Source of the DNA: an uncultured Gemmatimonadota bacterium
GTDB taxonomy: Bacteria; JAAXHH01
DNA length: 64,000 nucleotides
NCBI GenBank assembly: GCA_951812955.1
Contig: OX638340.1
Location: 1,920,001-1,984,000, forward strand
Direction: 5' to 3'
A model generated the notes under the pieces. The model was not told the origin of the DNA. It did no database searches and saw nothing but the letters and a program-made list of their open reading frames with translations. Shown here piece after piece: positions 24,798-36,305 of the stretch; position 1 is the first letter of the stretch, and each line of letters opens with the position of its first letter. The translations under genes were made by a program, and so were the position numbers.

Positions 24798-24996
24798 ATG
24801 GGACCCTTCGATCCTTTTCAAACGCCGATTAGATAGTACGGCTCTATCAGCGTACATATCCATCTGCTCCGCGCCTTACCTTTCAAACACATACGCTTGC
24901 CTAATCAGATTCAGATACGAGTAGAACAGAAGACGTATCAGGCTAATTCAAAATTAAACTTTGATTTGGCCTAATTTGATGTTTAACTTGCAGATT

Positions 24997-26181
24997 ATGA
25001 TTAAACGAGACCTTGCCGAGGAGTTGAAAAAGGCGGCACGGCGGTTCCCTTCAATCACGCTTACCGGACCACGGCAAAGTGGGAAGACCACACTGTGTCG
25101 AGCGCTATTTCCCCGTCTGCCCTACGCGACCCTTGAAGCGACGGACGTACGCTCTTTTGCAAGGGATGATCCCCGGGGGTTCCTGGCTCAGTTCGCCGGA
25201 GGCGCGATCATCGACGAGGTACAGCGCGTCCCCGACTTGCTGTCCTATTTGCAGGGCGTTATCGACGAAGAACCGGCGCCCGGCCGTTGGATTCTGACGG
25301 GTTCGCAGAACCTGTCTTTGCTCGAATCGGTCAGCCAATCGCTGGCCGGAAGGACCGCCATATACCATCTGCTTCCCTTGAGCCGATGTGAGATCCTGCG
25401 CTTTGACCGATATCCAGTCAGTCTCGAAGAGACGCTGTTCGCCGGGACGTACCCACGGGTTTTCGATCGCGGACTTGAACCGGCTGACTGGTTCAGGTCC
25501 TATGTCGCCACGTACGTCGAGCGTGACGTGCGCTCCACTAACAACGTAGGGGACCTGACGACGTTCCAACGATTCGTAGAGCTCTGCGCCGGGAGAACGG
25601 CGCAACTTGTCAACTATTCGTCACTGGCCAACGACTGCGGCATATCACAACCGACAGCCAAGGCGTGGCTCAGCATACTCGAGACCAGTTTTCTCGTTTT
25701 CCGCCTGCCGGCATTTCACTCGAATCTGCGAAAGCGACTTGTGAAGATGCCCAAACTGCACTTCTACGATACGGGTCTCGTCTGCTGGCTGCTGGGAATA
25801 CGCACGCCCGATCAACTGCGAAGCCATCCGTTGCGGGGTTCCGTCTTCGAAACCTGGGTTGTCTCGGAAATCACGAAACACAGACTCAACCGCGGCGAAT
25901 CGCCGAGGCTAAGTTTCTATCGCGATCGCAATGGCGTCGAAGTCGATCTCATCATCGAACAACCTTCTCATCGAACACTGGTCGAGGCAAAGTCGGGCGA
26001 AACGGTATCCGCGAATCTGTTCGCCGGAGCGCAGAGGGTCCAGAAACATATCACCCGGCCAACCCGCCCGGATTCCATAGCCGTGGTCTACGGCGGCGAC
26101 CAGTTCCAACATCGAACGCCGGGGTCTCTGGTACCCTGGAGTGGGCTTCACGAAGCGGATTTCTGGAAAACGGGGTCCTGA
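24997..26181 (+). CDS. AAA ATPase with C-terminal DUF4143 domain (COG1373-type)
   Basis: Walker A 'GPRQSGKTT', Walker B 'IIDEVQ'; C-terminal DUF4143-like region; start taken at MIKRDLAEEL. Confidence 0.7.
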   Translation: MIKRDLAEELKKAARRFPSITLTGPRQSGKTTLCRALFPRLPYATLEATDVRSFARDDPRGFLAQFAGGAIIDEVQRVPDLLSYLQGVIDEEPAPGRWILTGSQNLSLLESVSQSLAGRTAIYHLLPLSRCEILRFDRYPVSLEETLFAGTYPRVFDRGLEPADWFRSYVATYVERDVRSTNNVGDLTTFQRFVELCAGRTAQLVNYSSLANDCGISQPTAKAWLSILETSFLVFRLPAFHSNLRKRLVKMPKLHFYDTGLVCWLLGIRTPDQLRSHPLRGSVFETWVVSEITKHRLNRGESPRLSFYRDRNGVEVDLIIEQPSHRTLVEAKSGETVSANLFAGAQRVQKHITRPTRPDSIAVVYGGDQFQHRTPGSLVPWSGLHEADFWKTGS

Positions 26182-26898: not shown

Positions 26899-27150
26899 TC
26901 CCTAATCGATCGGCTCGGGTTCCCTGAACTGCGCTGACGTGACGAGCCAAGTCGCTAATTCAAAGGGTGATCCGTCTAAACGCGTTGACAGGATGGTTCT
27001 CAAATGCTTATAGTCCGGTAGAGAACCACTCAGTTGTATCTCGGCCTCATGCGGTCACGTATTGCGCAGTCCAAAACCAGTAAAATGGCCGTGCGAACTG
27101 CCGATCATGGTATGTTACAGCACACATGCGATGACAAGCGAACGATTAAC

Positions 27151-28098
27151 ATGAACCATTCGCCAACCGATACGTCCGCGCCGACAGGTACGCTCGCGCC
27201 AACCAGGCACGACCCTATCGAAGTTTCTCCGATACGGGCGGTGAACGTGGCTTTGGTCCCTCAACGAAGTCCGCTGCGGTACCCCGGTGGAAAGACGTGG
27301 CTGATTCCGCATATCCGGTTCTGGCTCGGCAAGATCGACCCTTCGCCTCGACTTCTGATCGAACCCTTCGCCGGCGGCGGGATCGTCTCCCTGACAGCGG
27401 TCATGGAAGGACTGGCCGAGCGGTGCATCATGGCGGAACTGGACCCCGACGTGGCTGCTTTCTGGCAGGCGGCGCTCAGGTCCGGACCTGAGCTCTGCGA
27501 CAAGGTGCTGCGCTTCCGACCAACGCGGGAAGCCGTCGAAGCCGTGGCGAGTATCAGACCGAGCGACCCGGTAGACCATGGTTTCCGCACGCTCGTGCTC
27601 AACCGAACGCGAAGGGGTGGCATTCTGGCTCCCGGCGCGGCGCTCAGTCGGGCGGGAGAAAACGGGAAGGGCGTCGCGTCCCGCTGGTATCCCGAAACCA
27701 TCGTAGGCCGTTTACGAGAGATCGCGGAACACGCCGACCGCATCGGCTTTCGCGAAACCGACGGCATCGGGTTGTTGGAGGAGTTGCTGGAAGCACGCGC
27801 GGGATCGGCGCTGGAGAACCCTTCCGACCCGGTGGTCTTCGCCGACCCTCCGTACACGGCCGGCGGCAAGCGCGCGGGAAGGCGGCTGTACACCCACAAC
27901 GAGATCGACCATCACCGGTTGTTCGAACTGCTTGCGGACAGCGGTGCGCGTTTCCTGATGACCTACGACAGGTCGTCCGAGATCGTGGCTCTCAGCCGGA
28001 AGCATGGATTCCACGCGGTACAGGTGACCATGAAGAACACCCATCACGCACGGATACCGGAACTGATCATCACCCCCGAACCGGTGTTCGTCAGTTGA
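27151..28098 (+). CDS. D12-class (Dam-like) N6-adenine DNA methyltransferase
   Basis: 'RYPGGK' motif I region and 'FADPPY' catalytic motif IV; start taken at MNHSPTDT (track ORF begins 27034). Confidence 0.8.
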   Translation: MNHSPTDTSAPTGTLAPTRHDPIEVSPIRAVNVALVPQRSPLRYPGGKTWLIPHIRFWLGKIDPSPRLLIEPFAGGGIVSLTAVMEGLAERCIMAELDPDVAAFWQAALRSGPELCDKVLRFRPTREAVEAVASIRPSDPVDHGFRTLVLNRTRRGGILAPGAALSRAGENGKGVASRWYPETIVGRLREIAEHADRIGFRETDGIGLLEELLEARAGSALENPSDPVVFADPPYTAGGKRAGRRLYTHNEIDHHRLFELLADSGARFLMTYDRSSEIVALSRKHGFHAVQVTMKNTHHARIPELIITPEPVFVS

Positions 28099-28973
28099 GT
28101 TCCCGTTACGGCATCGCGGAATGGTACGGGTTGCCATTCCCCTATCTCCCACCTGCTGCCCGCCATCATCTTGCAAAAAAAGCGTTACGGGAAGACCCCA
28201 ATGCTCCCGCGTGTCCGTTTCAAAACGGCCGGCCTCCATGCCGAAAGCGTGGCGGAATATGTTCCCTTGTTCGCTATGAACGGGATTCGGACGGAAGGCT
28301 TGGCTTGCCAAAAGGAAATCCGGTCATCGTTTGTCCGTCCCGATTCGAGGAAGAGCAACTGCTCGTTACCTGGTTGGCCGAGATCGTTGGCTTTGGACCG
28401 GACGAGGCGATGATCGCTCGCGAAGTAGCCTTCATGGAAGGAACCAGCACGGAGAGACCGGCTGGAAAAATCGATCTAGTCGTCGCCAGGGCCTCCAATG
28501 ACGATCTGAAATGGTTTGGACTGGAAATACAAGCCGTCTATTTCTCAGGTCAAGGCATGCCGTCCGAGTTCGCCAACCTACGGGACGACGATCATCGAAG
28601 ACCACCGTTTCCAAACGCGGTCCGTAGACCGGACTGGCGCTCTTCGAGCGCAAAGCGCCTCATGCCGCAGTTGCAAATCAAAGTGCCGACGCTACGCCGA
28701 TGGGGTTCGAAACTCGCCGTGTCGGTAGACCGGCCGTTTTTCGATTCGATTGGTGGTCCCAGTGCGCATCCCAGCCAGGACCTCAACGATGGGGACATCA
28801 TCTGGTTGATCCCGGAGTTGAAGCGGGAAGCCGGTGGTAACTTCAGGCTCACTCGGGGACATTGGGAAGTGCTCACGTTGGAGGATACGACCCGGAAACT
28901 CCTTGCGGCGGAAACGATCCGGCGGGAAGCGTTTGAGCAGGAGCTCCGCAGCAAACTCGAAGCGCTTCGGTGA
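28095..28973 (+). CDS. NotI-family type II restriction endonuclease
   Basis: N-terminal alignment to R.NotI ('IAEWYG' vs 'IAEFFG', 'CPF', 'GICSL' vs 'GVCVV', 'VCPSRF' vs 'VCPNRA', Cys4 metal site); TTG start overlapping MTase stop (TTGA). Confidence 0.6.
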   Translation: MSSRYGIAEWYGLPFPYLPPAARHHLAKKALREDPNAPACPFQNGRPPCRKRGGICSLVRYERDSDGRLGLPKGNPVIVCPSRFEEEQLLVTWLAEIVGFGPDEAMIAREVAFMEGTSTERPAGKIDLVVARASNDDLKWFGLEIQAVYFSGQGMPSEFANLRDDDHRRPPFPNAVRRPDWRSSSAKRLMPQLQIKVPTLRRWGSKLAVSVDRPFFDSIGGPSAHPSQDLNDGDIIWLIPELKREAGGNFRLTRGHWEVLTLEDTTRKLLAAETIRREAFEQELRSKLEALR

Positions 28974-29073
28974 GGCAGCGGACGACACCCGGGATACTGG
29001 GGTTCAAGATCGACGACTCGGTGTTAACCTTATGTCATCGGATGTGTAGTGCACCCCAAAATGGGACAAGTAG

Positions 29074-29950
29074 TTAAGCTACAGTTTTAACACGTGTCAT
29101 CCTCTGCTCGAACTCGACCGGCGGTCTGTAGTCCAGGGCCGAGTGCAAGCGCTTGCGATTGTATAGTTTGTCGATGAAGTAGCCGATGCGTGATCGGGCT
29201 TCTTCCAGGGATTCGTACTCGTAGAGATAGACCTCCTCGTATTTGAGCGTCCTGATGAAGCGCTCTGCCCTGGCGTTGTCATAGGGGTTGCCTTGCCGGC
29301 TCATGCTGATCCGTATGCCAGCGTTCTTGAGCGTGTCTACATAGGCTTTCGAGGCATACTGCACGCTCCGGTCGGAGTGATGCACAAGCCCTTTCTGCGC
29401 TGGTCTGGCGGCCAGGGCGCTGTCGAGGGCGTTCAGGGCCAAGGTGGCATCGAGGGTTCGATCCAAGGCCCAGCCGATGCATCTTCTGCTGCAGGCGTCA
29501 AGGATCACCGCCAGATAGACCCATTCGCGAGCCAGCCTTATGTAGGTGATGTCGGATACCCAGAGCTGGTTGACATTGGTTACGTTCAGTTCCGGGACCA
29601 GGTTGGCGTAAACGGCGCGGTCGTGATTCGAGTCGGTGGTCGCTACGAAGGCTCGGCGCCGCAGGGCAAGCAGGTTGTCCTCGCGCATGAGACGCAGAAC
29701 GCGCTTGTGGTTCACATGGTATCCCATACGCTTTAGCGCGCGGGTCATGGGACGGTAACCGTAGGCGGGTCAGGAAAGGGCGAGCCTGTGGATCTGATCC
29801 CGCAGTGCAAGGTCCGGATCCGTACGACCACGACGACCGCGGTAGTAGCTGGATCGACCGATCGAGAGCGTCCTGCACAGACGCTTGACCACGGCGCGGT
29901 CGGTGGACGCCTTTGATTGAGCGACCAGGCAGATCATGAGCTTCCTCCAT
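29074..29950 (-). pseudogene. IS3 transposase orfB (integrase core) interrupted by an in-frame TGA
   Basis: 'LCRTLSIGRSSYYRGRR...IHRLALS*PAYGYRPMTRALKRMGYHVNHKRVLRLMRE...DITYI...DRSVQYAS...YNRKRLHSALDYRPP' DDE/rve motifs. Confidence 0.7.
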
Positions 29951-30259
29951 TGCCTCGGGCTGAGCGTGGGATCTCCTCGAGCCGACTCAAGACTTTTTTT
30001 AACACATCGTTCTCCATGGTCAGTTGACCGACCTTGCGCTCAAGGGCCTAGGGTCCGGGCCTCGTCACTTACCGCCTTGCCATCCATTACCGGGGAAAGC
30101 GCGGTCGCCCTGGCGGCGAAGCTGCTGACGCCACCTGTGGATCAGCGTAGGATGGACCTGGTGTTCTCGGGCCAACTGGCTGATGGATTTGCCCGAATCG
30201 GCTTCCTGGAGAACCTGGAGCTTGAACTCGCGGGTGAACTGACGGCGTTTCAGGGACAT
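29951..30259 (-). pseudogene. IS3 transposase orfA (HTH), frameshifted
   Basis: 'MSLKRRQFTREFKLQVLQEADSGKSISQLAREHQVHPTLIHRWRQQL' then stop; leucine-zipper part 'ALERKVGQLTMENDVLKKVLSRLEE' continues in another frame. Confidence 0.65.
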
Positions 30260-30328
30260 GGGGTACCTCCTCGTTCAGAAGGAAGCTTAACTCACTGTCC
30301 CGGACAAGGGTGCAGTACACAGAACACG

Positions 30329-31252
30329 TTACAGAGGAAGTTTGTTGTAGCTGATTCCGAATCCAAACCGCACATCGTAAGAGCTCTGAGTCGGGACGGT
30401 GCTAAGCTCTTCGATATTCGAAGTATCGATCTTAGAGCCGCCCTGCATCGTCGGACCTTGACTTATATGAGCACCAAAGGTGAGCCAAGTAGACTTTCCG
30501 ATCTCCAAACTTGGACCGAAGATATATTCTAGAACCGTTCCCGGTTCGCCTCCGATTTCTGCGAGCGTTCCTAAACTCAAGTTTACATCCCAACCATTAC
30601 CAATCCGCAAAACGTGCGAATTAACAACGGTTCCTGGCATCACTTGGAAATCCGACCAACTTGTGAAGAAACCGACGCTAATAGAGAACGGGGACTCGCA
30701 AACGAACGTGACCAAAGGATACTCATTCTTCTTGGCGGCTTCGTTTTTCTCCCCGTCCTCATTATCTTGCGGGAACAAGTCGAAAACCACCAAGGTCCAC
30801 TCTTCTTTTCGAGATTTGAAGTCGCACTCGATCGACTGTGAGATTTCAGACTTGGTGCCCTTGTGCATCTCAATAGATGATTGAAGGTATCTTTTTAATG
30901 CCGTAATCTGATCGTTCGCTTGACTCCACTTACTTTCTGCTAATTCAATCTCTACAAGAGCACTGCCAGTCTGCGTCAACGCACTGTCAATCTGTGCCAA
31001 CAAAACACTGTCAGGTAATTGCAATGCACCGCCAAGTGCCTCCCTGTTGTTCCTATTTGCCAAGTTCATCAAACGATCCTGAAGGGAAACTTGGCGATCC
31101 TGAAGGGAAGATATCTGCGGCCAGTTTCCCTTCTCAATTTCACCTATGAGTTGACCGCTTCTGTATATCAGTGTGTCGCTTGGAAAATACATATTACTAA
31201 TATCAATGAAATCGCGCAGTTTCTTAATCTGATTAGAGGTTACTTGACGCAA
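30329..31252 (-). CDS. hypothetical protein (AT-rich foreign gene; coiled-coil N-terminus, beta-rich C-terminus)
   Basis: 307-aa ORF with markedly lower GC than surroundings; no recognisable motifs. Confidence 0.45.
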   Translation of the reverse strand: MRQVTSNQIKKLRDFIDISNMYFPSDTLIYRSGQLIGEIEKGNWPQISSLQDRQVSLQDRLMNLANRNNREALGGALQLPDSVLLAQIDSALTQTGSALVEIELAESKWSQANDQITALKRYLQSSIEMHKGTKSEISQSIECDFKSRKEEWTLVVFDLFPQDNEDGEKNEAAKKNEYPLVTFVCESPFSISVGFFTSWSDFQVMPGTVVNSHVLRIGNGWDVNLSLGTLAEIGGEPGTVLEYIFGPSLEIGKSTWLTFGAHISQGPTMQGGSKIDTSNIEELSTVPTQSSYDVRFGFGISYNKLPL

Positions 31253-31767
31253 GCTGTTAGCCTGGTTTTGTGCAACGTCGGTTTCTTAAGCAAAGAGGCG
31301 GTTTCTCTAAATAAAGAATCGATGCCTTCAGGCGGTGTGCCAACGTTGCTTATATTAAACGAGGAATTGACGTTTTGAAACACACTATCAGCCTGGATTT
31401 CATTCGTCATCTCCCATTGGCATAGCTGGCGCAGGTAGTTGAGCGTATTGGGGGCGTCAAGCGCCTCAACCTGACGGCGGATTTCGTATCTATAGCGAAC
31501 TAAGTTAAGATCCACTACTGTGATGGATGCTTTGTAATGAACTTGCACTTCACCATAGGAACCTTGGGGCCTTTGAAGGGAGTAAGTCAAATCTTGTCCG
31601 GCAGCTACCGGCATATCTGATCCGACAAACAACAGCACACCGGCGATGTGGAAAAGAGCATTTAATAGACGATACTTCGTCCGAGATCCCCGTGGTGGTC
31701 CTAAGGAAACGAGCGGTATTCCTGAAATGACGGTTCTCACGTTTCGGTTCTCCGACATCCCTTTCAT
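31240..31767 (-). CDS. hypothetical protein with N-terminal signal-anchor
   Basis: 175-aa ORF overlapping downstream gene by 13 nt (operon); hydrophobic segment 'LLNALFHIAGVLLFVGS'. Confidence 0.4.
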   Translation of the reverse strand: MKGMSENRNVRTVISGIPLVSLGPPRGSRTKYRLLNALFHIAGVLLFVGSDMPVAAGQDLTYSLQRPQGSYGEVQVHYKASITVVDLNLVRYRYEIRRQVEALDAPNTLNYLRQLCQWEMTNEIQADSVFQNVNSSFNISNVGTPPEGIDSLFRETASLLKKPTLHKTRLTACVK

Positions 31768-31849
31768 AAACGACCTCCTGTAATTGGCCTCAAAAACTGG
31801 ATCTCGTCAAAGGTGGATGTACCATAGCAGACAACCCGGCACGCGGAAG

Positions 31850-32245
31850 GCCGATGGTATGTTGAAAAGACGCAGACGGGCCCAGCGTCCGGTGCAAGTT
31901 TCAGGTGGCTCTCGAAGCGCTCATGGGACTGAAGGCCATCAGCCAGTTGGCCGCGGAGCATCAAGGCCAACACAATCAGATCACCAAATGGAAACGCCGG
32001 TTACTCGATGAGGGCGATCAAGTTTTTAACCACAGGCGACCGGTCCCGATGGCGTTCAAGATGCCATAGTGGACCAGCTCTACGAGCAGATCGGACGCTT
32101 GAAGATGGAACTGAAGTGGCTAAAAAAGTTGCCCTTTCAACGCGTCACAGACGCCTGATGATCGATGTCGATACGCCTCGGCTTTCCATACGCTGTCATT
32201 GCGAACTGATGGATCTTTCAAGGTCCAGCTTCTACCAAGAATAGG
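31850..32245 (+). mobile_element. fragment of a second IS3-family element (orfA remnant plus first ~20 codons of orfB), frameshifted and truncated
   Basis: Frames give 'KFQVALEALMGLKAISQLAAEHQGQHNQITKWKRRLLDEGDQVF', 'VDQLYEQIGRLKMELKWLKKL', 'LSIRCHCELMDLSRSSFYQE*'. Confidence 0.55.
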
Positions 32246-32273
32246 ACTTGCATAACATTAGCATGTCGGGCAG

Positions 32274-33062
32274 TTACAATGTATTACGGATCCTGTTCGC
32301 TATACACTTGAATACCCATTCATTAGGATGGAGTTCATCATCCCAGAAATTCTTGTAATGACCTGGACTGTTACTAAGAAGATCACGAACATCTACGTAA
32401 CGTACATAGTCATAGTTTACTGCCAACAACTGAAGCATTTCGTTGAACTTGTCTATCAGTACCTCCATCACCCTGGTAGCAAACCAAAGGTCATCGTGAC
32501 TTTTTTTAATATTGTATCCCTTTTTCCTGAATACCGGATAGAGCCAAGGCCCCTTTACCTTTATCCAAAACTTGAACTTGCGTCCATCGGGAACTGGGTG
32601 GCCATATCCATGGACGATTATCGGAATATCACTTTGGGGCCAATACACTAAACAAGCTCCCCTTATAACTTCGATAAGTTGCGAGTAGTAAGTACGAAGA
32701 TAGCAGAATATCATTTTCTGGACTTCATTCGTGTCTAACGCACTATTTACATCTGATGCTGATGTACGATCGTTAAGCATTTTCTTCAGCTTCTTTGTCA
32801 GATCATTGCCGCCACCGGAGAGGAGGACTGCTTTGGGTTTGCTATTGAGTTTGTGTAGTTTTTGTAGTTTTTTAAGAAGGGCTTTGTGTTGTTCTTGTGC
32901 ATAGGCCATATCCTTGAGCGTGTCACCGTGTTTAGCTACACTTCTCACTTTGTATCCCATGCCCCTTAACCCCTCTAATACATCATCAGCTTGATTTGTA
33001 GAGTTTGGCAAATCGAACCATGAATCACCCTCCGCTACCAAGATTGGTTTTTGATTTGGCAT
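32274..33062 (-). CDS. SGNH/GDSL-family hydrolase (AT-rich foreign gene)
   Basis: Block I 'VAEGDSWFD', block III 'GGGND', block V 'DELHPN'; low GC. Confidence 0.55.
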   Translation of the reverse strand: MPNQKPILVAEGDSWFDLPNSTNQADDVLEGLRGMGYKVRSVAKHGDTLKDMAYAQEQHKALLKKLQKLHKLNSKPKAVLLSGGGNDLTKKLKKMLNDRTSASDVNSALDTNEVQKMIFCYLRTYYSQLIEVIRGACLVYWPQSDIPIIVHGYGHPVPDGRKFKFWIKVKGPWLYPVFRKKGYNIKKSHDDLWFATRVMEVLIDKFNEMLQLLAVNYDYVRYVDVRDLLSNSPGHYKNFWDDELHPNEWVFKCIANRIRNTL

Positions 33063-33184
33063 GTTAGTTCTCCTCTATAGGTGGATTACTATAGGAACCT
33101 CTGATCAAGTCTACCCGCCCCGGGGAAGCTGATGTCACTCATCTTTCGCGGACGGTTTACGGTTAGATATTCAGATTGATTCCT

Positions 33185-33532
33185 TTAGTACAGATCGACC
33201 CGGAAGGCGCCTCGCGTCAAGGCCTCCTGCAGTCTCGTCTGGTGGCTGCGATGACGCGGATGTCCGATGATACTGCCCGGACGCTTCCCAAGGGACGATA
33301 GGTCTTCTCGGAGAGGACCCGCAGCGTGGATCGCCTTGGCGATCAGTTCCTTGCCGGCCCCCGTTTCGCCCGTGATCAATACGGGCATATCCTTTGATGC
33401 GTAACGGTAGGCTCTCGCCGGGATCCATTTCATCTCGTGGCTCCTGTGCTTGATCGCATCGAAGGCGCCGTGCGCTTCATGCCCTTGCGCTGGTTCCGGC
33501 GGATTCTGGCTCGTCATCAGGGAGTACGCCAT
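33185..33532 (-). pseudogene. fragment of a sigma-54-dependent transcriptional activator (start of AAA+ domain only)
   Basis: 'VLITGETGAGKELIAKAIH' Walker A of the sigma-54 interaction domain, then divergence and stop after about 115 aa. Confidence 0.5.
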
Positions 33533-33893: not shown

Positions 33894-33976
33894 GGAAGGA
33901 TGGATCTGTGACACGGAAAGGATGGACCGGTGAAGCGTGATACATCGGTGAAGCGTAAAGACGGACCGGGGCGGGA
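33894..33976. repeat. copy B of the ~85-bp imperfect direct repeat; overlaps the 5' end of the hybrid kinase gene
   Basis: ggatggatctgtgacacggaaaggatggaccggtgaagcgtgatacatcggtgaagcgtaaagacggaccggggcgg. Confidence 0.5.
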
Positions 33977-36305
33977 GATCGAGGCGCTGCGCGAACGCAT
34001 CTCGATGCTGAGCGCGGCAAGCCTGCGCATCAGCGCGAGCCTGGACCTGGAGACCGTCCTGCACGAGGTCATCAACAGCGCCCGCGCGCTGATCGAGGCT
34101 CGTTACGGCGGCATCGTCACCATCGACGAGTCCGGGCAGCCCCGGGACTTCATCACCTCCGGTTTCACCGACGCGGAGCACCGCCAAATGGCCGACTGGC
34201 CCGACGGGCCCAGGCTCTTCGAGCACTTCCGCGACCTCAAGGGCGTGCTGAGACTGCCGGATGCGCGCGCCTACGTGCGCTCGCTCGGCTTCGCCTCGGA
34301 CCGGCTGTCGTCCGGCACCTTCCTGGGCACCCCGATGCGCCATCGCGGCCTGCACGTCGGCAACTTCTATCTCGTCGAGAAGGAAGGCGGAGCGGAGTTC
34401 ACCAGCGAGGACGAGGAGATCCTGGTGCTGTTCGCCTCCCAGGCTGCGACGGCCATCGCCAATGCCCGCACGTACCAGGCCGAGCAGCGCGCCCGGGCCG
34501 ACCTGGAGGCCCTGGTCGAGACCTCGCCGGTGGGCGTCCTGGTCTTCGATGCCGGGACCGGCCGGCTCATGTCGTCCAATCAGGAGGCGAAGCGGATCGT
34601 GGAGGGCCTGCGCATGCCGGGCCGTCCCATGGAGGCGCTGCAGGAGGTGATCACCTGCCGGCGCGCCGACGGGCGCGAGATCGCACTGGAGAAGTTGCCC
34701 CTGTCGCAGGTGCTGAACCGCACCGAGACGGTCCGGGCCGAGGAGATGGTGCTCTCGGTCCCCGACGGACGAAGCGTCACGGCGCTGATCAATTCCACGC
34801 CGATCCACTCGGAGCAAGGCGCTGTCGTGTCCGTTGTGGTCACCATGCAGGACCTGGCGCCGCTACAGGAACTGGAGCGATTACGGGCGGAGTTCCTTGG
34901 CCTGGTGAGTCATGAGTTGCGCACCCCGCTCACGTCGATCAAGGGCTCGGCGGCCACGCTGCTGGATGCCGCCCCGAAACTCGACCCGGCGGAGATGCGC
35001 GAGTTCTGCCGCATCATCCTCTCGCAGGCCGATCACATGCGCGTCCTGATCAGCGACCTGCTGGACGCGGGCCGCATCGACACGGGCACGCTGTCGGTGA
35101 CGCCCGAGCCCTCCGAGGTCGCCGCCCTGGTGGACCGGGCGCGGACCACGTTCCAGAGCGGCGGCGGCAGGCACCCCGTACTGATCGACCTGCCGCCCGA
35201 TCTGCCACGGGTCATGGCCGACCGGCAGCGCATCGAACAAGTGCTGAACAACCTGTTCGCCAATGCCGCGCGGCACGCTCCCGAGTCCTCTCCCATCAGG
35301 GTCTCCGGGGCGCGCGACGGGGTGCATGTCGCGGTCACGGTACGCGACGAAGGCGCGGGAGTAGCGCCCGACCGGCTCCCGCATCTCTTTCGGAAATATG
35401 CCGGGCTCGAGGGCGGCGACCGCGAGTCCGGGGCTGCCGGCTCGGGGCTCGGTCTGGCCATCTGCAAAGGGCTGGTCGAAACTCACGGAGGGCGTATCCG
35501 GGCCGAAAGTCCGGGCATGGGCCAGGGCACGCGCATCACCTTCACGATCCCGGTAGCCGCCGAGGCCGCCGAGGCCGCCCGAGAGCCGGTTCGTACCGAC
35601 CCGCAAGACACCGGAGAAACTGGCGAGCCGACGCGCATCCTCGTGGTCGACGACGACCCGCAGACGCTACGCTACGTGCGCGAAGCGCTCACGGCGGCCG
35701 GCTACTCCGCGCTCGTGACCAGCAACCATGACGAACTGGCGAGCATTATACACGCCGAGCGACCCGAACTGGTCCTGCTGGACCTGCTGCTGCCCGGCAC
35801 GGACGGTATAGCGTTGATGGAACGCCTGCCCGAACTGGCCGAACTTCCGGTCATCTTCATCTCCGCCTACGGACGGGACGAGACCATCGCGCGGGCGCTC
35901 GATACCGGCGCCGCCGACTACCTCGTCAAGCCCTTCTCGACGACCGAGCTCGTGGCGCGGATCCGGGCGGCGCTGCACAGACGGGCCGATCCCGACCCCT
36001 TCGTGCTGGGCGAACTCGCCATCCACTACGATCGGCGAAGGGTGAGCACAGGCGGTGTACGGGTCGACCTCACCGCCACCGAGTATGAGCTGCTGCGCGT
36101 CCTCTCGCTCAACGCGGGACGGGTTTTGACCTTCGCCACCCTGATGCGCCAGGTCTGGGGTACGCGCGCCTACGCCAATCCGAAGCTCGTGCGCGCCTTC
36201 GTCAAGAAGCTCCGCCACAAGCTCGGCGACAATGCAGACAAGCCTATCTACATCTTCAACGAGCGCGGGGTCGGCTACCGAATGGCCCAGCCGGCCGAAT
36301 CGTAG
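33930..36305 (+). CDS. single-polypeptide two-component system: GAF-PAS-HisKA-HATPase_c-REC-OmpR/PhoB-type winged-helix DNA-binding domain
   Basis: H-box 'LVSHELRTPLTSI', G-boxes 'GSGLGLAICKGLVETHGG', REC 'ILVVDDDP...DLLLPGTDG...KPF', trans_reg_C 'VDLTATEYELLRVL...RGVGYRM'; very GC-rich. Confidence 0.8.
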   Translation: MKRDTSVKRKDGPGREIEALRERISMLSAASLRISASLDLETVLHEVINSARALIEARYGGIVTIDESGQPRDFITSGFTDAEHRQMADWPDGPRLFEHFRDLKGVLRLPDARAYVRSLGFASDRLSSGTFLGTPMRHRGLHVGNFYLVEKEGGAEFTSEDEEILVLFASQAATAIANARTYQAEQRARADLEALVETSPVGVLVFDAGTGRLMSSNQEAKRIVEGLRMPGRPMEALQEVITCRRADGREIALEKLPLSQVLNRTETVRAEEMVLSVPDGRSVTALINSTPIHSEQGAVVSVVVTMQDLAPLQELERLRAEFLGLVSHELRTPLTSIKGSAATLLDAAPKLDPAEMREFCRIILSQADHMRVLISDLLDAGRIDTGTLSVTPEPSEVAALVDRARTTFQSGGGRHPVLIDLPPDLPRVMADRQRIEQVLNNLFANAARHAPESSPIRVSGARDGVHVAVTVRDEGAGVAPDRLPHLFRKYAGLEGGDRESGAAGSGLGLAICKGLVETHGGRIRAESPGMGQGTRITFTIPVAAEAAEAAREPVRTDPQDTGETGEPTRILVVDDDPQTLRYVREALTAAGYSALVTSNHDELASIIHAERPELVLLDLLLPGTDGIALMERLPELAELPVIFISAYGRDETIARALDTGAADYLVKPFSTTELVARIRAALHRRADPDPFVLGELAIHYDRRRVSTGGVRVDLTATEYELLRVLSLNAGRVLTFATLMRQVWGTRAYANPKLVRAFVKKLRHKLGDNADKPIYIFNERGVGYRMAQPAES

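Follow-up and report, generated by a model that had tools for sequence, protein, structure and literature searches.

We have analysed a segment of low guanine-plus-cytosine (GC) content around positions 30329-33062 of a 64,000-nucleotide (nt) stretch of contig OX638340.1 from an uncultured Gemmatimonadota bacterium. This whole stretch is called the window; all open reading frames (ORFs) and coordinates refer to it, and whole-window comparisons were made within it. An earlier description of the same DNA, hereafter the sequence-only reading, had seen in this segment three cargo genes, namely an operon of two orphan genes, for a signal-anchored protein of 175 amino acids (aa) and an overlapping protein of 307 aa, and a gene for an SGNH hydrolase. 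Our results indicate that the apparent operon is a single gene of about 479 codons, which was split by the loss of one base and which belongs to a family of predicted exported proteins. The 13-nt overlap between the two ORFs is present as described, but it is the frameshift junction inside one gene. The segment with its borders (30320-33184) is very probably a patchwork of horizontally acquired low-GC DNA that abuts the terminus of an IS3 element, within a variable region in which a NotI-like restriction-modification pair is also encoded.

When the 307-aa ORF was used in an initial protein search, only three relatives were found. Among them was P0002, a single ORF of 480 aa, which is almost exactly the sum of 175 and 307. 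In a tblastn comparison with the window, residues 29-113 of P0002 aligned to the 175-aa frame (58% identity) and residues 151-476 to the 307-aa frame (36% identity). In the three-frame translation, the downstream frame is open only from the TAA inside cttAAgaaa and the stop of the upstream frame lies 45 nt further, which confines the frame switch to about 45 nt around AAGAAACCGAC. The alignment with homologues places the switch between ...LLKK and TDVAQNQANSLRQVT.... Probably, AAG AAA ACC GAC became AAGAAACCGAC by the loss of one A near 31281 (AAGAAAACCGAC to AAGAAACCGAC, A4 to A3). When one A was inserted, a 479-aa ORF was obtained, and it matched positions 9-489 of 499 of the family hidden Markov model (HMM), unbroken across the junction, although this HMM had been built without any window sequence. 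The same frameshift site is identical in the related loci L002, L016 and L017. The frameshift is found in assemblies ERZ23495265 and ERZ15614337, which both represent one second lineage with single-nucleotide polymorphisms (SNPs), insertions and deletions elsewhere relative to the window. The split alignment, the three-frame read-out and the one-A repair show both that this is one gene and where its frame was lost, and the two-gene operon is replaced by one gene with a 1-nt deletion. The supposed signal anchor is a hydrophobic segment that represents, in the full-length protein, the signal peptide. The features of the gene are as follows.

30329..31767, minus strand: split gene of about 479 codons, predicted exported protein of an uncharacterised family (from the P0002 alignment, the one-A repair and the family HMM)
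30329-31252, minus strand: 307-aa ORF with a TTG start
31240-31767, minus strand: 175-aa ORF, overlapping the 307-aa ORF by 13 nt
31240..31290, minus strand: frameshift zone (from the three-frame translation and the homologue alignment)
31074..31109, minus strand: perfect 15-nt direct repeat with 21-nt spacing (LQDRQVSLQDR), in the helical region, on a segment that is extra relative to P0002

We infer that the split gene is a pseudogene that has lost its function, because it carries the frameshift, has a fragment of an IS3-family element (IS-B) at its 5' end, and has a downstream half with neither a signal peptide nor a convincing ribosome-binding site. The putative left end of IS-B lies about 11 nt in front of the split gene's ATG, and the GGAGG ribosome-binding site ahead of the 175-aa ORF is the sole remnant of the original 5' region. 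On this account, the one-base deletion would have inactivated a single gene of about 479 codons and produced the appearance of a 175/307-aa operon, and the IS3 fragment 11 nt 5' of the start codon would separate the gene from its former promoter. The split gene is also without one beta-hairpin that is found in P0002 (residues 335-372). No -24/-12 promoter was found upstream of either the split gene or the SGNH gene. Between the two lineages the split gene differs by five substitutions (two synonymous and three nonsynonymous), which are too few for a selection test.

Neither half-ORF had a match in Pfam, NCBIfam, PADLOC or PHROGs, in agreement with the statement of the sequence-only reading that no domains are recognisable. 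The term orphan is not appropriate, since a profile search of 1.84 billion cluster representatives (clusters at 50% identity) returned 399 family clusters at E <= 1e-3 and 134 at E <= 1e-10, nearly all of them single ORFs of 430-660 aa. The named sources almost always carry the label 'hypothetical protein' and include Acidobacteriota (Blastocatellia, Pyrinomonadaceae) and a Latescibacterota metagenome-assembled genome (MAG). The family is best conserved in the last 130-160 residues. Of about 80 members whose N-termini were inspected by eye, most show the parts of a classical signal peptide, with a charged n-region, a hydrophobic core and an AxA-like site. In 61 family members, no consistent Pfam domain or outer-membrane-protein family was found even at E <= 5, only coiled-coil noise, and the same noise was all that a profile search of PDB sequences returned. 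P0002 had no plasmid match, and PADLOC returned nothing for the window ORFs or for the protein P0012.

The AlphaFold-based fold search proposed with the sequence-only reading was run on the relative P0002. With 61 family sequences, AlphaFold2 gave a confident model of P0002, with a predicted local distance difference test score (pLDDT) of 82.3 and a predicted template modelling score (pTM) of 0.69; with four sequences the pLDDT was 36 and the model was useless. The model consists of an N-terminal hydrophobic helix, which we read as a signal peptide, four short strands at residues 59-99 with a conserved LNxxRYxY motif, a helical bundle at residues 122-269, and a C-terminal meander of eleven long strands at residues 273-476, the strands being 6-16 residues long. 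Many strands alternate hydrophobic and polar residues. The final strand is rich in aromatic residues (TFTYKIR, ITFTKP, ISYRF) and the family match extends to the extreme C-terminus, where the usual last residue is K, R or P, not F. In the model, the two cysteines of the nearly invariant pair C279/C321 would be located in adjacent turns at one side of the sheet. The top Foldseek matches in the PDB were all outer-membrane barrels, led by OmpA-short (E 2.2e-3, probability 0.96) and followed by AlkL, FadL, OmpW, Pla and autotransporters, as weak matches with template-modelling (TM) scores of 0.14-0.34 and high root-mean-square deviation (rmsd).

On the one hand, the family resembles outer-membrane barrels such as FapF, DcaP, OmpA, OmpW and AlkL, since it likewise has a signal peptide and a helical domain followed by antiparallel strands of 10-16 residues, and its homology likewise runs to the last residues with an aromatic-rich end strand (GFxxTFTYKIR, GFGFAITFTKP). 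FapF and DcaP are both within its Foldseek match list. On the other hand, it differs from these barrels in having no Pfam match to an outer-membrane-protein sequence family, low TM-scores and high rmsd, and also in the four extra strands before the bundle, the cysteine pair C279/C321 and the rarity of the canonical terminal Phe. The ancestral protein would have been an exported beta-barrel of the outer-membrane type that carries a helical bundle, as predicted from the model.

Three other explanations of the two ORFs were considered. If the 175-aa and 307-aa proteins were separate, functional and translationally coupled products of a genuine two-gene operon, the 13-nt overlap, the conservation of the arrangement in two lineages and the GGAGG site before the 175-aa ORF would be accounted for. 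However, all full-length relatives are one ORF, the model places the junction within a helix of the bundle, and the one-base repair gives a continuous profile match. In addition, the 307-aa part would be without the signal peptide that is present in all family members examined, and neither the TTG at 31252 nor the ATG at 31192 has a good ribosome-binding site in front of it, so that we regard an operon as very improbable. Recoding, by programmed -1 ribosomal frameshifting or by transcriptional slippage, would restore a full-length protein, and it would agree with the position of the downstream frame at -1 relative to the upstream frame and with the short A runs AAGAAA and CACAAAACC in the shift zone. 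We find it hardly credible, because a slippery heptamer of the type X XXY YYZ is absent from 31240-31290 by reading of the sequence, the A runs are only 3-4 nt long, no homologue requires a frameshift, and Rfam is empty in the region. Known transcriptional slippage tracts are far longer than such runs.

The gene might also be intact in the cell and the frameshift an assembly or sequencing error, considering that single-base insertions and deletions do occur in metagenome assemblies, from which the window and its relatives seem to stem. This is very unlikely, because the same frameshift is present in the window and in ERZ23495265 and ERZ15614337, two further assemblies that come from different samples and from a lineage with SNPs and indels elsewhere. 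Moreover, the site is a run of only three A, not an error-prone homopolymer. Some observations nevertheless weigh against describing the locus as the dead copy of a barrel gene that was cut off from its promoter. The frameshift is kept in two lineages, which could reflect tolerance or use of the split form rather than recent decay, and the two fragments may have a residual function. The left end of IS-B at about 31779 is a putative one, placed from its TG start, and the closure of the barrel is predicted only.

The pseudogene lies in a composite setting, and the remaining features of this setting are as follows.

29045..30319, minus strand: IS-A, IS3-family element, full length of 1275 bp (from Pfam domains and inverted repeats)
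about 31779..32245, plus strand: IS-B, 5' fragment of about 470 bp of a different IS3-family element (from a weak HTH_Tnp_1 match and the three-frame translation)
32274-33062, minus strand: SGNH/GDSL hydrolase gene, 262 aa, Pfam PF13472
33075..33184, minus strand: non-coding 5' edge of the low-GC segment (from blastn of the relative L030 against the window, in which L030 homology ends exactly at 33186)
33185..33532, minus strand: remnant of a sigma-54 activator gene, GC 60.9% and thus host-like, forming the right border of the island (Pfam Sigma54_activat)

The segment 30329-33062 has a GC content of 46.2%, compared with a mean of 59.4% (standard deviation 2.8, minimum 51.6) for windows of the same size elsewhere in the 64 kb (z = -4.8). 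The sequence-only reading had rightly noticed the low GC but had set the background at about 63%, and it is about 59-60%. GC at third codon positions (GC3) is 0.51 and 0.50 for the 307-aa and 175-aa ORFs and 0.43 for the SGNH gene, against 0.72-0.87 in 12 other window genes. Both GC and GC3 are strong outliers. The impression of foreign cargo accompanied by IS3 elements was borne out by these outliers and by the absence of a 1.95-kb piece from the syntenic relative L030. The proposed arrangement was correct for one part only: the 175/307 pair lies between two IS3 elements, and the SGNH gene lies beyond the second. Nor are both elements fragments, as had been assumed; the left one has its full length of 1275 bp with both inverted repeats, and only the right one is a fragment.

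The comparison with L030 shows how the segment varies. The flanks of L030 are about 93% identical in DNA to the window. Its gene order is a sigma-54 activator (306 aa), an SGNH allele, directly an IS-A inverted repeat, a NotI-like enzyme, a D12 methyltransferase, a rhodanese and an AAA_14 ATPase. L030 has neither the 175/307 gene nor the second IS3 fragment, and therefore the 1.95-kb piece is variable cargo that is extra in the window lineage. The low-GC slot beside the IS end is exchangeable, the DNA immediately beyond the inverted repeat not being the same in the two genomes.

IS-A has the make-up of an IS3 element, with an orfA helix-turn-helix and an orfB DDE rve domain, repeats that start with TG and a length of about 1.3 kb. 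Its Pfam matches are rve (2.4e-26), rve_3 and HTH_21 on 29074-29748 and HTH_Tnp_1 (4.8e-13) on 30065-30259. The terminal inverted repeats are imperfect and about 35 bp long (TGTACTGCACCC...GTTAAGC and TGTAGTGCACCCC...GTTAAGC), and they begin with TG (TGTACTGCACCCTTGTCCGGGACAGTGAGTTAAGC vs TGTAGTGCACCCCAAAATGGGACAAGTAGTTAAGC). In the L016 copy, orfA has 106 aa and orfB 261 aa; in IS-A, a 4-nt insertion that the L016 copy does not have reduces orfA to 64 aa. Unlike a typical member of the family, IS-A has broken frames and no target-site duplication of 3-4 bp; its flanks read ...GGATG on one side and CAGAAC on the other. Beyond its right end, the window and L030 have different DNA. This difference and the missing duplication suggest a rearrangement mediated by the IS end or an adjacent deletion. 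As in other cargo next to IS3 elements, variable DNA abuts one IS end here.

IS-B is a 3'-truncated 5' stub with a weak HTH_Tnp_1 match (0.0036) on 31905-32069. Its orfA helix-turn-helix, its leucine zipper (LYEQIGRLKMELKWLKK) and the N-terminus of its orfB (PRLSIRCHCELMDLSRSSFYQE) are in three different frames. IS-B has no nucleotide similarity to IS-A, and no further copy of it was found in the window. As the two elements are unrelated in DNA, they do not form a composite transposon.

At the right border, the Sigma54_activat match of the activator remnant covers only profile positions 3-47 of 168; of the AAA+ domain only the Walker A portion is left, together with a 'FRVDLY' segment. The activator of L030 retains its AAA lid and HTH_8 domains. 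Compared with this gene (L030:5597-6517), the remnant lacks about 196 nt in its interior, by a deletion, and about 930 nt from the 3' end. By this comparison, the activator gene is decayed in the window lineage, and the island begins exactly at its truncation. Control of the split gene by sigma-54 was considered and rejected, as there is no -24/-12 promoter and L030 has the activator and no family gene; the co-occurrence in the window was taken as coincidence.

Further searches of the island gave little. There was no Rfam match at E <= 0.1 across the region and no tRNA by ARAGORN, and accordingly the region holds neither an RNA gene nor a tRNA integration site. The island DNA had no match in plasmid and phage collections beyond a weak similarity to IS3 transposase genes, and the sites in a promoter and terminator scan were no commoner than in shuffled sequence. 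The locus is mostly ordinary mobile-element debris, without a sign of a working new system. Immediately left of IS-A (27034-28973, plus strand), a D12-class N6-adenine methyltransferase gene (354 aa) overlaps a gene for a NotI-family endonuclease (292 aa; Pfam NotI 1.3e-41), and an AAA_14/DUF4143 ATPase is encoded further left of this restriction-modification pair at 24961-26181. The order of the methyltransferase, NotI and ATPase genes is kept in L016 and L030. To the right, at 33930-36305 on the plus strand, a 791-aa hybrid kinase/regulator (GAF-PAS-HisKA-HATPase-receiver-Trans_reg_C) is the opposite outlier, with 68% GC and a GC3 of 0.86 in a window of about 59% GC.

The SGNH gene is the second cargo gene, located between IS-B and the sigma-54 activator remnant, outside the IS3 pair, and its GC content of 41.6% is the lowest here. 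The sequence-only reading had assigned it correctly. The match of its product to Lipase_GDSL_2 (PF13472) scores 39.5 bits (E = 1.1e-9), above the curated gathering cut-off of 32.9, and all three motifs that had been pointed out (GDSW, GGGND, DELHPN) are present. They belong to catalytic blocks that are conserved in homologues: AEGDSWFD at residues 11-18 (block I), LSGGGNDL (block III) and DDELHPN (block V). The window protein shares GDS (block I), GGGND (block III) and DxxH (block V) with other SGNH/GDSL proteins, and it differs from them as a member of a subclade with the catalytic Ser at residue 14 and no signal peptide. The gene is intact and encodes a putative esterase or lipase. More than 2000 homologues exist at about 40% identity, in which LVAEGDSWFD is invariant and which are mostly named 'lysophospholipase L1-like esterase' or 'hypothetical protein'. 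Only 2 of 60 homologue N-termini resemble signal peptides; most have a basic helical extension, which the window copy does not have. Because the protein has no signal peptide, it is probably cytoplasmic.

The SGNH gene differs strikingly between lineages compared with its surroundings. Relative to the second lineage (L002/L016) it has about 15 substitutions, only one of which is synonymous and some of which stand beside an indel and may be alignment effects, and three in-frame indels (-9, +6 and -12 nt) within 789 bp. The differences between the window and L002/L016/L017 concentrate at 32495-32896. Over the neighbouring 1954 bp, which consist of pseudogene and IS debris, the lineages are 99.5% identical, with only 9 substitutions and one 1-nt indel. 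The SGNH allele of L030 has a protein identity of 57% and a DNA identity of 67%, against flanks of 93%. The reading frame, as judged from these alleles, is clearly maintained. This maintained frame and the excess of amino-acid changes suggest diversifying selection, repeated allele replacement or a recombination patch, based on very few alleles. Variation by a diversity-generating retroelement was rejected, since the substitutions have no adenine-specific pattern and no reverse transcriptase was seen in the neighbouring genes checked.

On plasmids, the subclade of the window protein occurs in fusion with protease domains as well as alone. Its forms are a trypsin-like fusion (Geminocystis L031, Mesorhizobium), a caspase fusion (Rhizobium L032) and a solo protein, and L033 and L034 are further loci of the protease-fused subclade beside L031 and L032. 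Downstream genes could be read for two fusion genes only. In these two, from Geminocystis and Rhizobium, the fusion is followed by peptidoglycan-active genes (GH19, amidase, murein endopeptidase, chitosanase and L,D-transpeptidase-like) and also by DUF3616. In this respect the subclade of the window protein stands apart from SGNH/GDSL proteins in general. A solo SGNH gene in Pararhizobium has a similar set of genes on its upstream side, with an IS630 transposase between them. These plasmid sets resemble conserved cassettes, and we found no description of them. The SGNH gene and the split-gene family were tested as a conserved pair and did not co-occur in any other locus examined. Therefore, the two cargo genes are treated as unrelated passengers.

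The gene neighbourhoods of the family, which the sequence-only reading had proposed to search, were examined in 16 independent loci outside the window. The metagenome scan with the Acidobacteria-type subfamily yielded 12 loci where an earlier scan had yielded none, and close alignment gave a single genome locus, in the Latescibacterota MAG. In 10 of the 16 loci a trypsin-like, subtilisin S8 or TPR-CHAT protease is encoded within 1-4 genes of the family member (named loci L003, L004, L005, L012, L019, L020, L022, L025 and L029), and roughly one locus in three is without a protease. In L004, the gene of a 405-aa trypsin-like protein, itself with a signal peptide, lies 4 nt downstream of the family gene, which encodes P0007. 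The family-adjacent proteases are a mixture of exported and cytoplasmic forms. L012, L015 and L025 contain a divergent pair of a TPR Ser/Thr kinase and an FHA-GAF sigma-54 activator. Peptidoglycan hydrolases or related proteins (Amidase_2, DUF2272, YkuD, M23) are nearby in several loci, and FGE-sulfatase domain proteins in two. In the window, the ORFs had no PADLOC match, and no protease gene lies in the island or among its neighbours.

Some details of these loci were recorded in addition. In the intergenic DNA between activator and family gene, L012:5608-6000 and L015:5665-6000 contain palindromes of the type CTATCA-N6-TGATAG and GG[CT]AC-N5-TTGA motifs, which resemble activator binding sites and an atypical -24/-12 promoter and are putative. 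In L005:116-10996, L022:1219-8368 and L029:1589-8350, a TPR-CHAT gene is followed by 1-4 small unannotated ORFs and then by the family member. By eye, the N-terminus of the CHAT protein or the neighbouring ORFs in L022 and L029 look like anti-sigma or extracytoplasmic function (ECF) sigma factors. The small ORFs of L005, L022 and L029 had no Pfam or PADLOC match.

In prokaryotic immunity, the pairing of proteases with effectors is an established principle of defence, and the modules characterised recently include Pepco/Trypco, EACC1, bacterial gasdermin (bGSDM), and metallo-beta-lactamase and alpha/beta-hydrolase zymogens (PMC12642450). The relatives of the split gene are likewise found beside trypsin-like, subtilisin S8 and caspase-like CHAT proteases with TPR, sometimes with an FGE-sulfatase, and action on a membrane would be plausible for a protein rich in beta structure and non-enzymatic. 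However, Pepco and EACC1 are small, while the family protein has about 480 aa. Pepco, EACC1 and bGSDM are cytoplasmic and none is described with a signal peptide, while the family carries one and would be exported by it. The family also differs from these modules in having no PADLOC match, and its window copy is broken and without a protease partner.

In a rival view, the island would be, or would have been, a protease-linked conflict or defence module with the SGNH enzyme and the exported protein as effectors. The proteases beside the relatives, the trypsin-like and caspase fusions of the plasmid SGNH subfamily, the hypervariable SGNH slot, the adjacent restriction-modification pair and the established protease-effector logic (PMC12642450) all speak for it. 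We nevertheless judge it improbable, since no protease gene lies in or beside the island, PADLOC has no matches, the SGNH gene and the family were never together in the other loci examined, the gene for the exported protein is broken, and the signal peptides set the family apart from the cytoplasmic Pepco, EACC1 and bGSDM. The function in defence that the sequence-only reading had implied does not agree with a gene that is frameshifted, promoterless and without protease partners in the window. The gene neighbourhoods do suggest that the family may be functionally linked to neighbouring serine or cysteine proteases. We consider this association a lead and not a classification.

A broader proposal for the family can be formulated, which we regard as speculative and rather unlikely. 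The family of about 400 clusters would consist of undescribed signal-peptide proteins with a helical bundle and a beta-barrel, which would work with adjacent trypsin, subtilisin or CHAT proteases, possibly under the control of the kinase/sigma-54 pair in some Acidobacteriota-type loci, for example as an envelope pore that is activated by proteases or anchors them. They would thereby be the exported equivalent of the protease-effector modules of the cytoplasm. The SGNH proteins might be a second class of protease-linked effectors, and the window copy of the family gene a dead relic.

In summary, a single-base deletion can mimic an overlapping operon with a 'signal-anchored' first gene. For this genome, a false lead is removed, and a frameshifted gene, IS debris and a hydrolase of ordinary fold take the place of a cryptic operon. 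The locus itself is of low interest, and the exported family and the protease-linked SGNH subclade are modest leads. The former is a sizeable exported family without database annotation, with a confident model and a recurring position beside trypsin, S8 and CHAT proteases. The latter is fused to proteases on plasmids, and its allele here is diverging much faster than its flanks. Should either of them prove to act in the envelope as an effector linked to proteases, the protease-effector principle now emerging for bacterial immunity would be extended.

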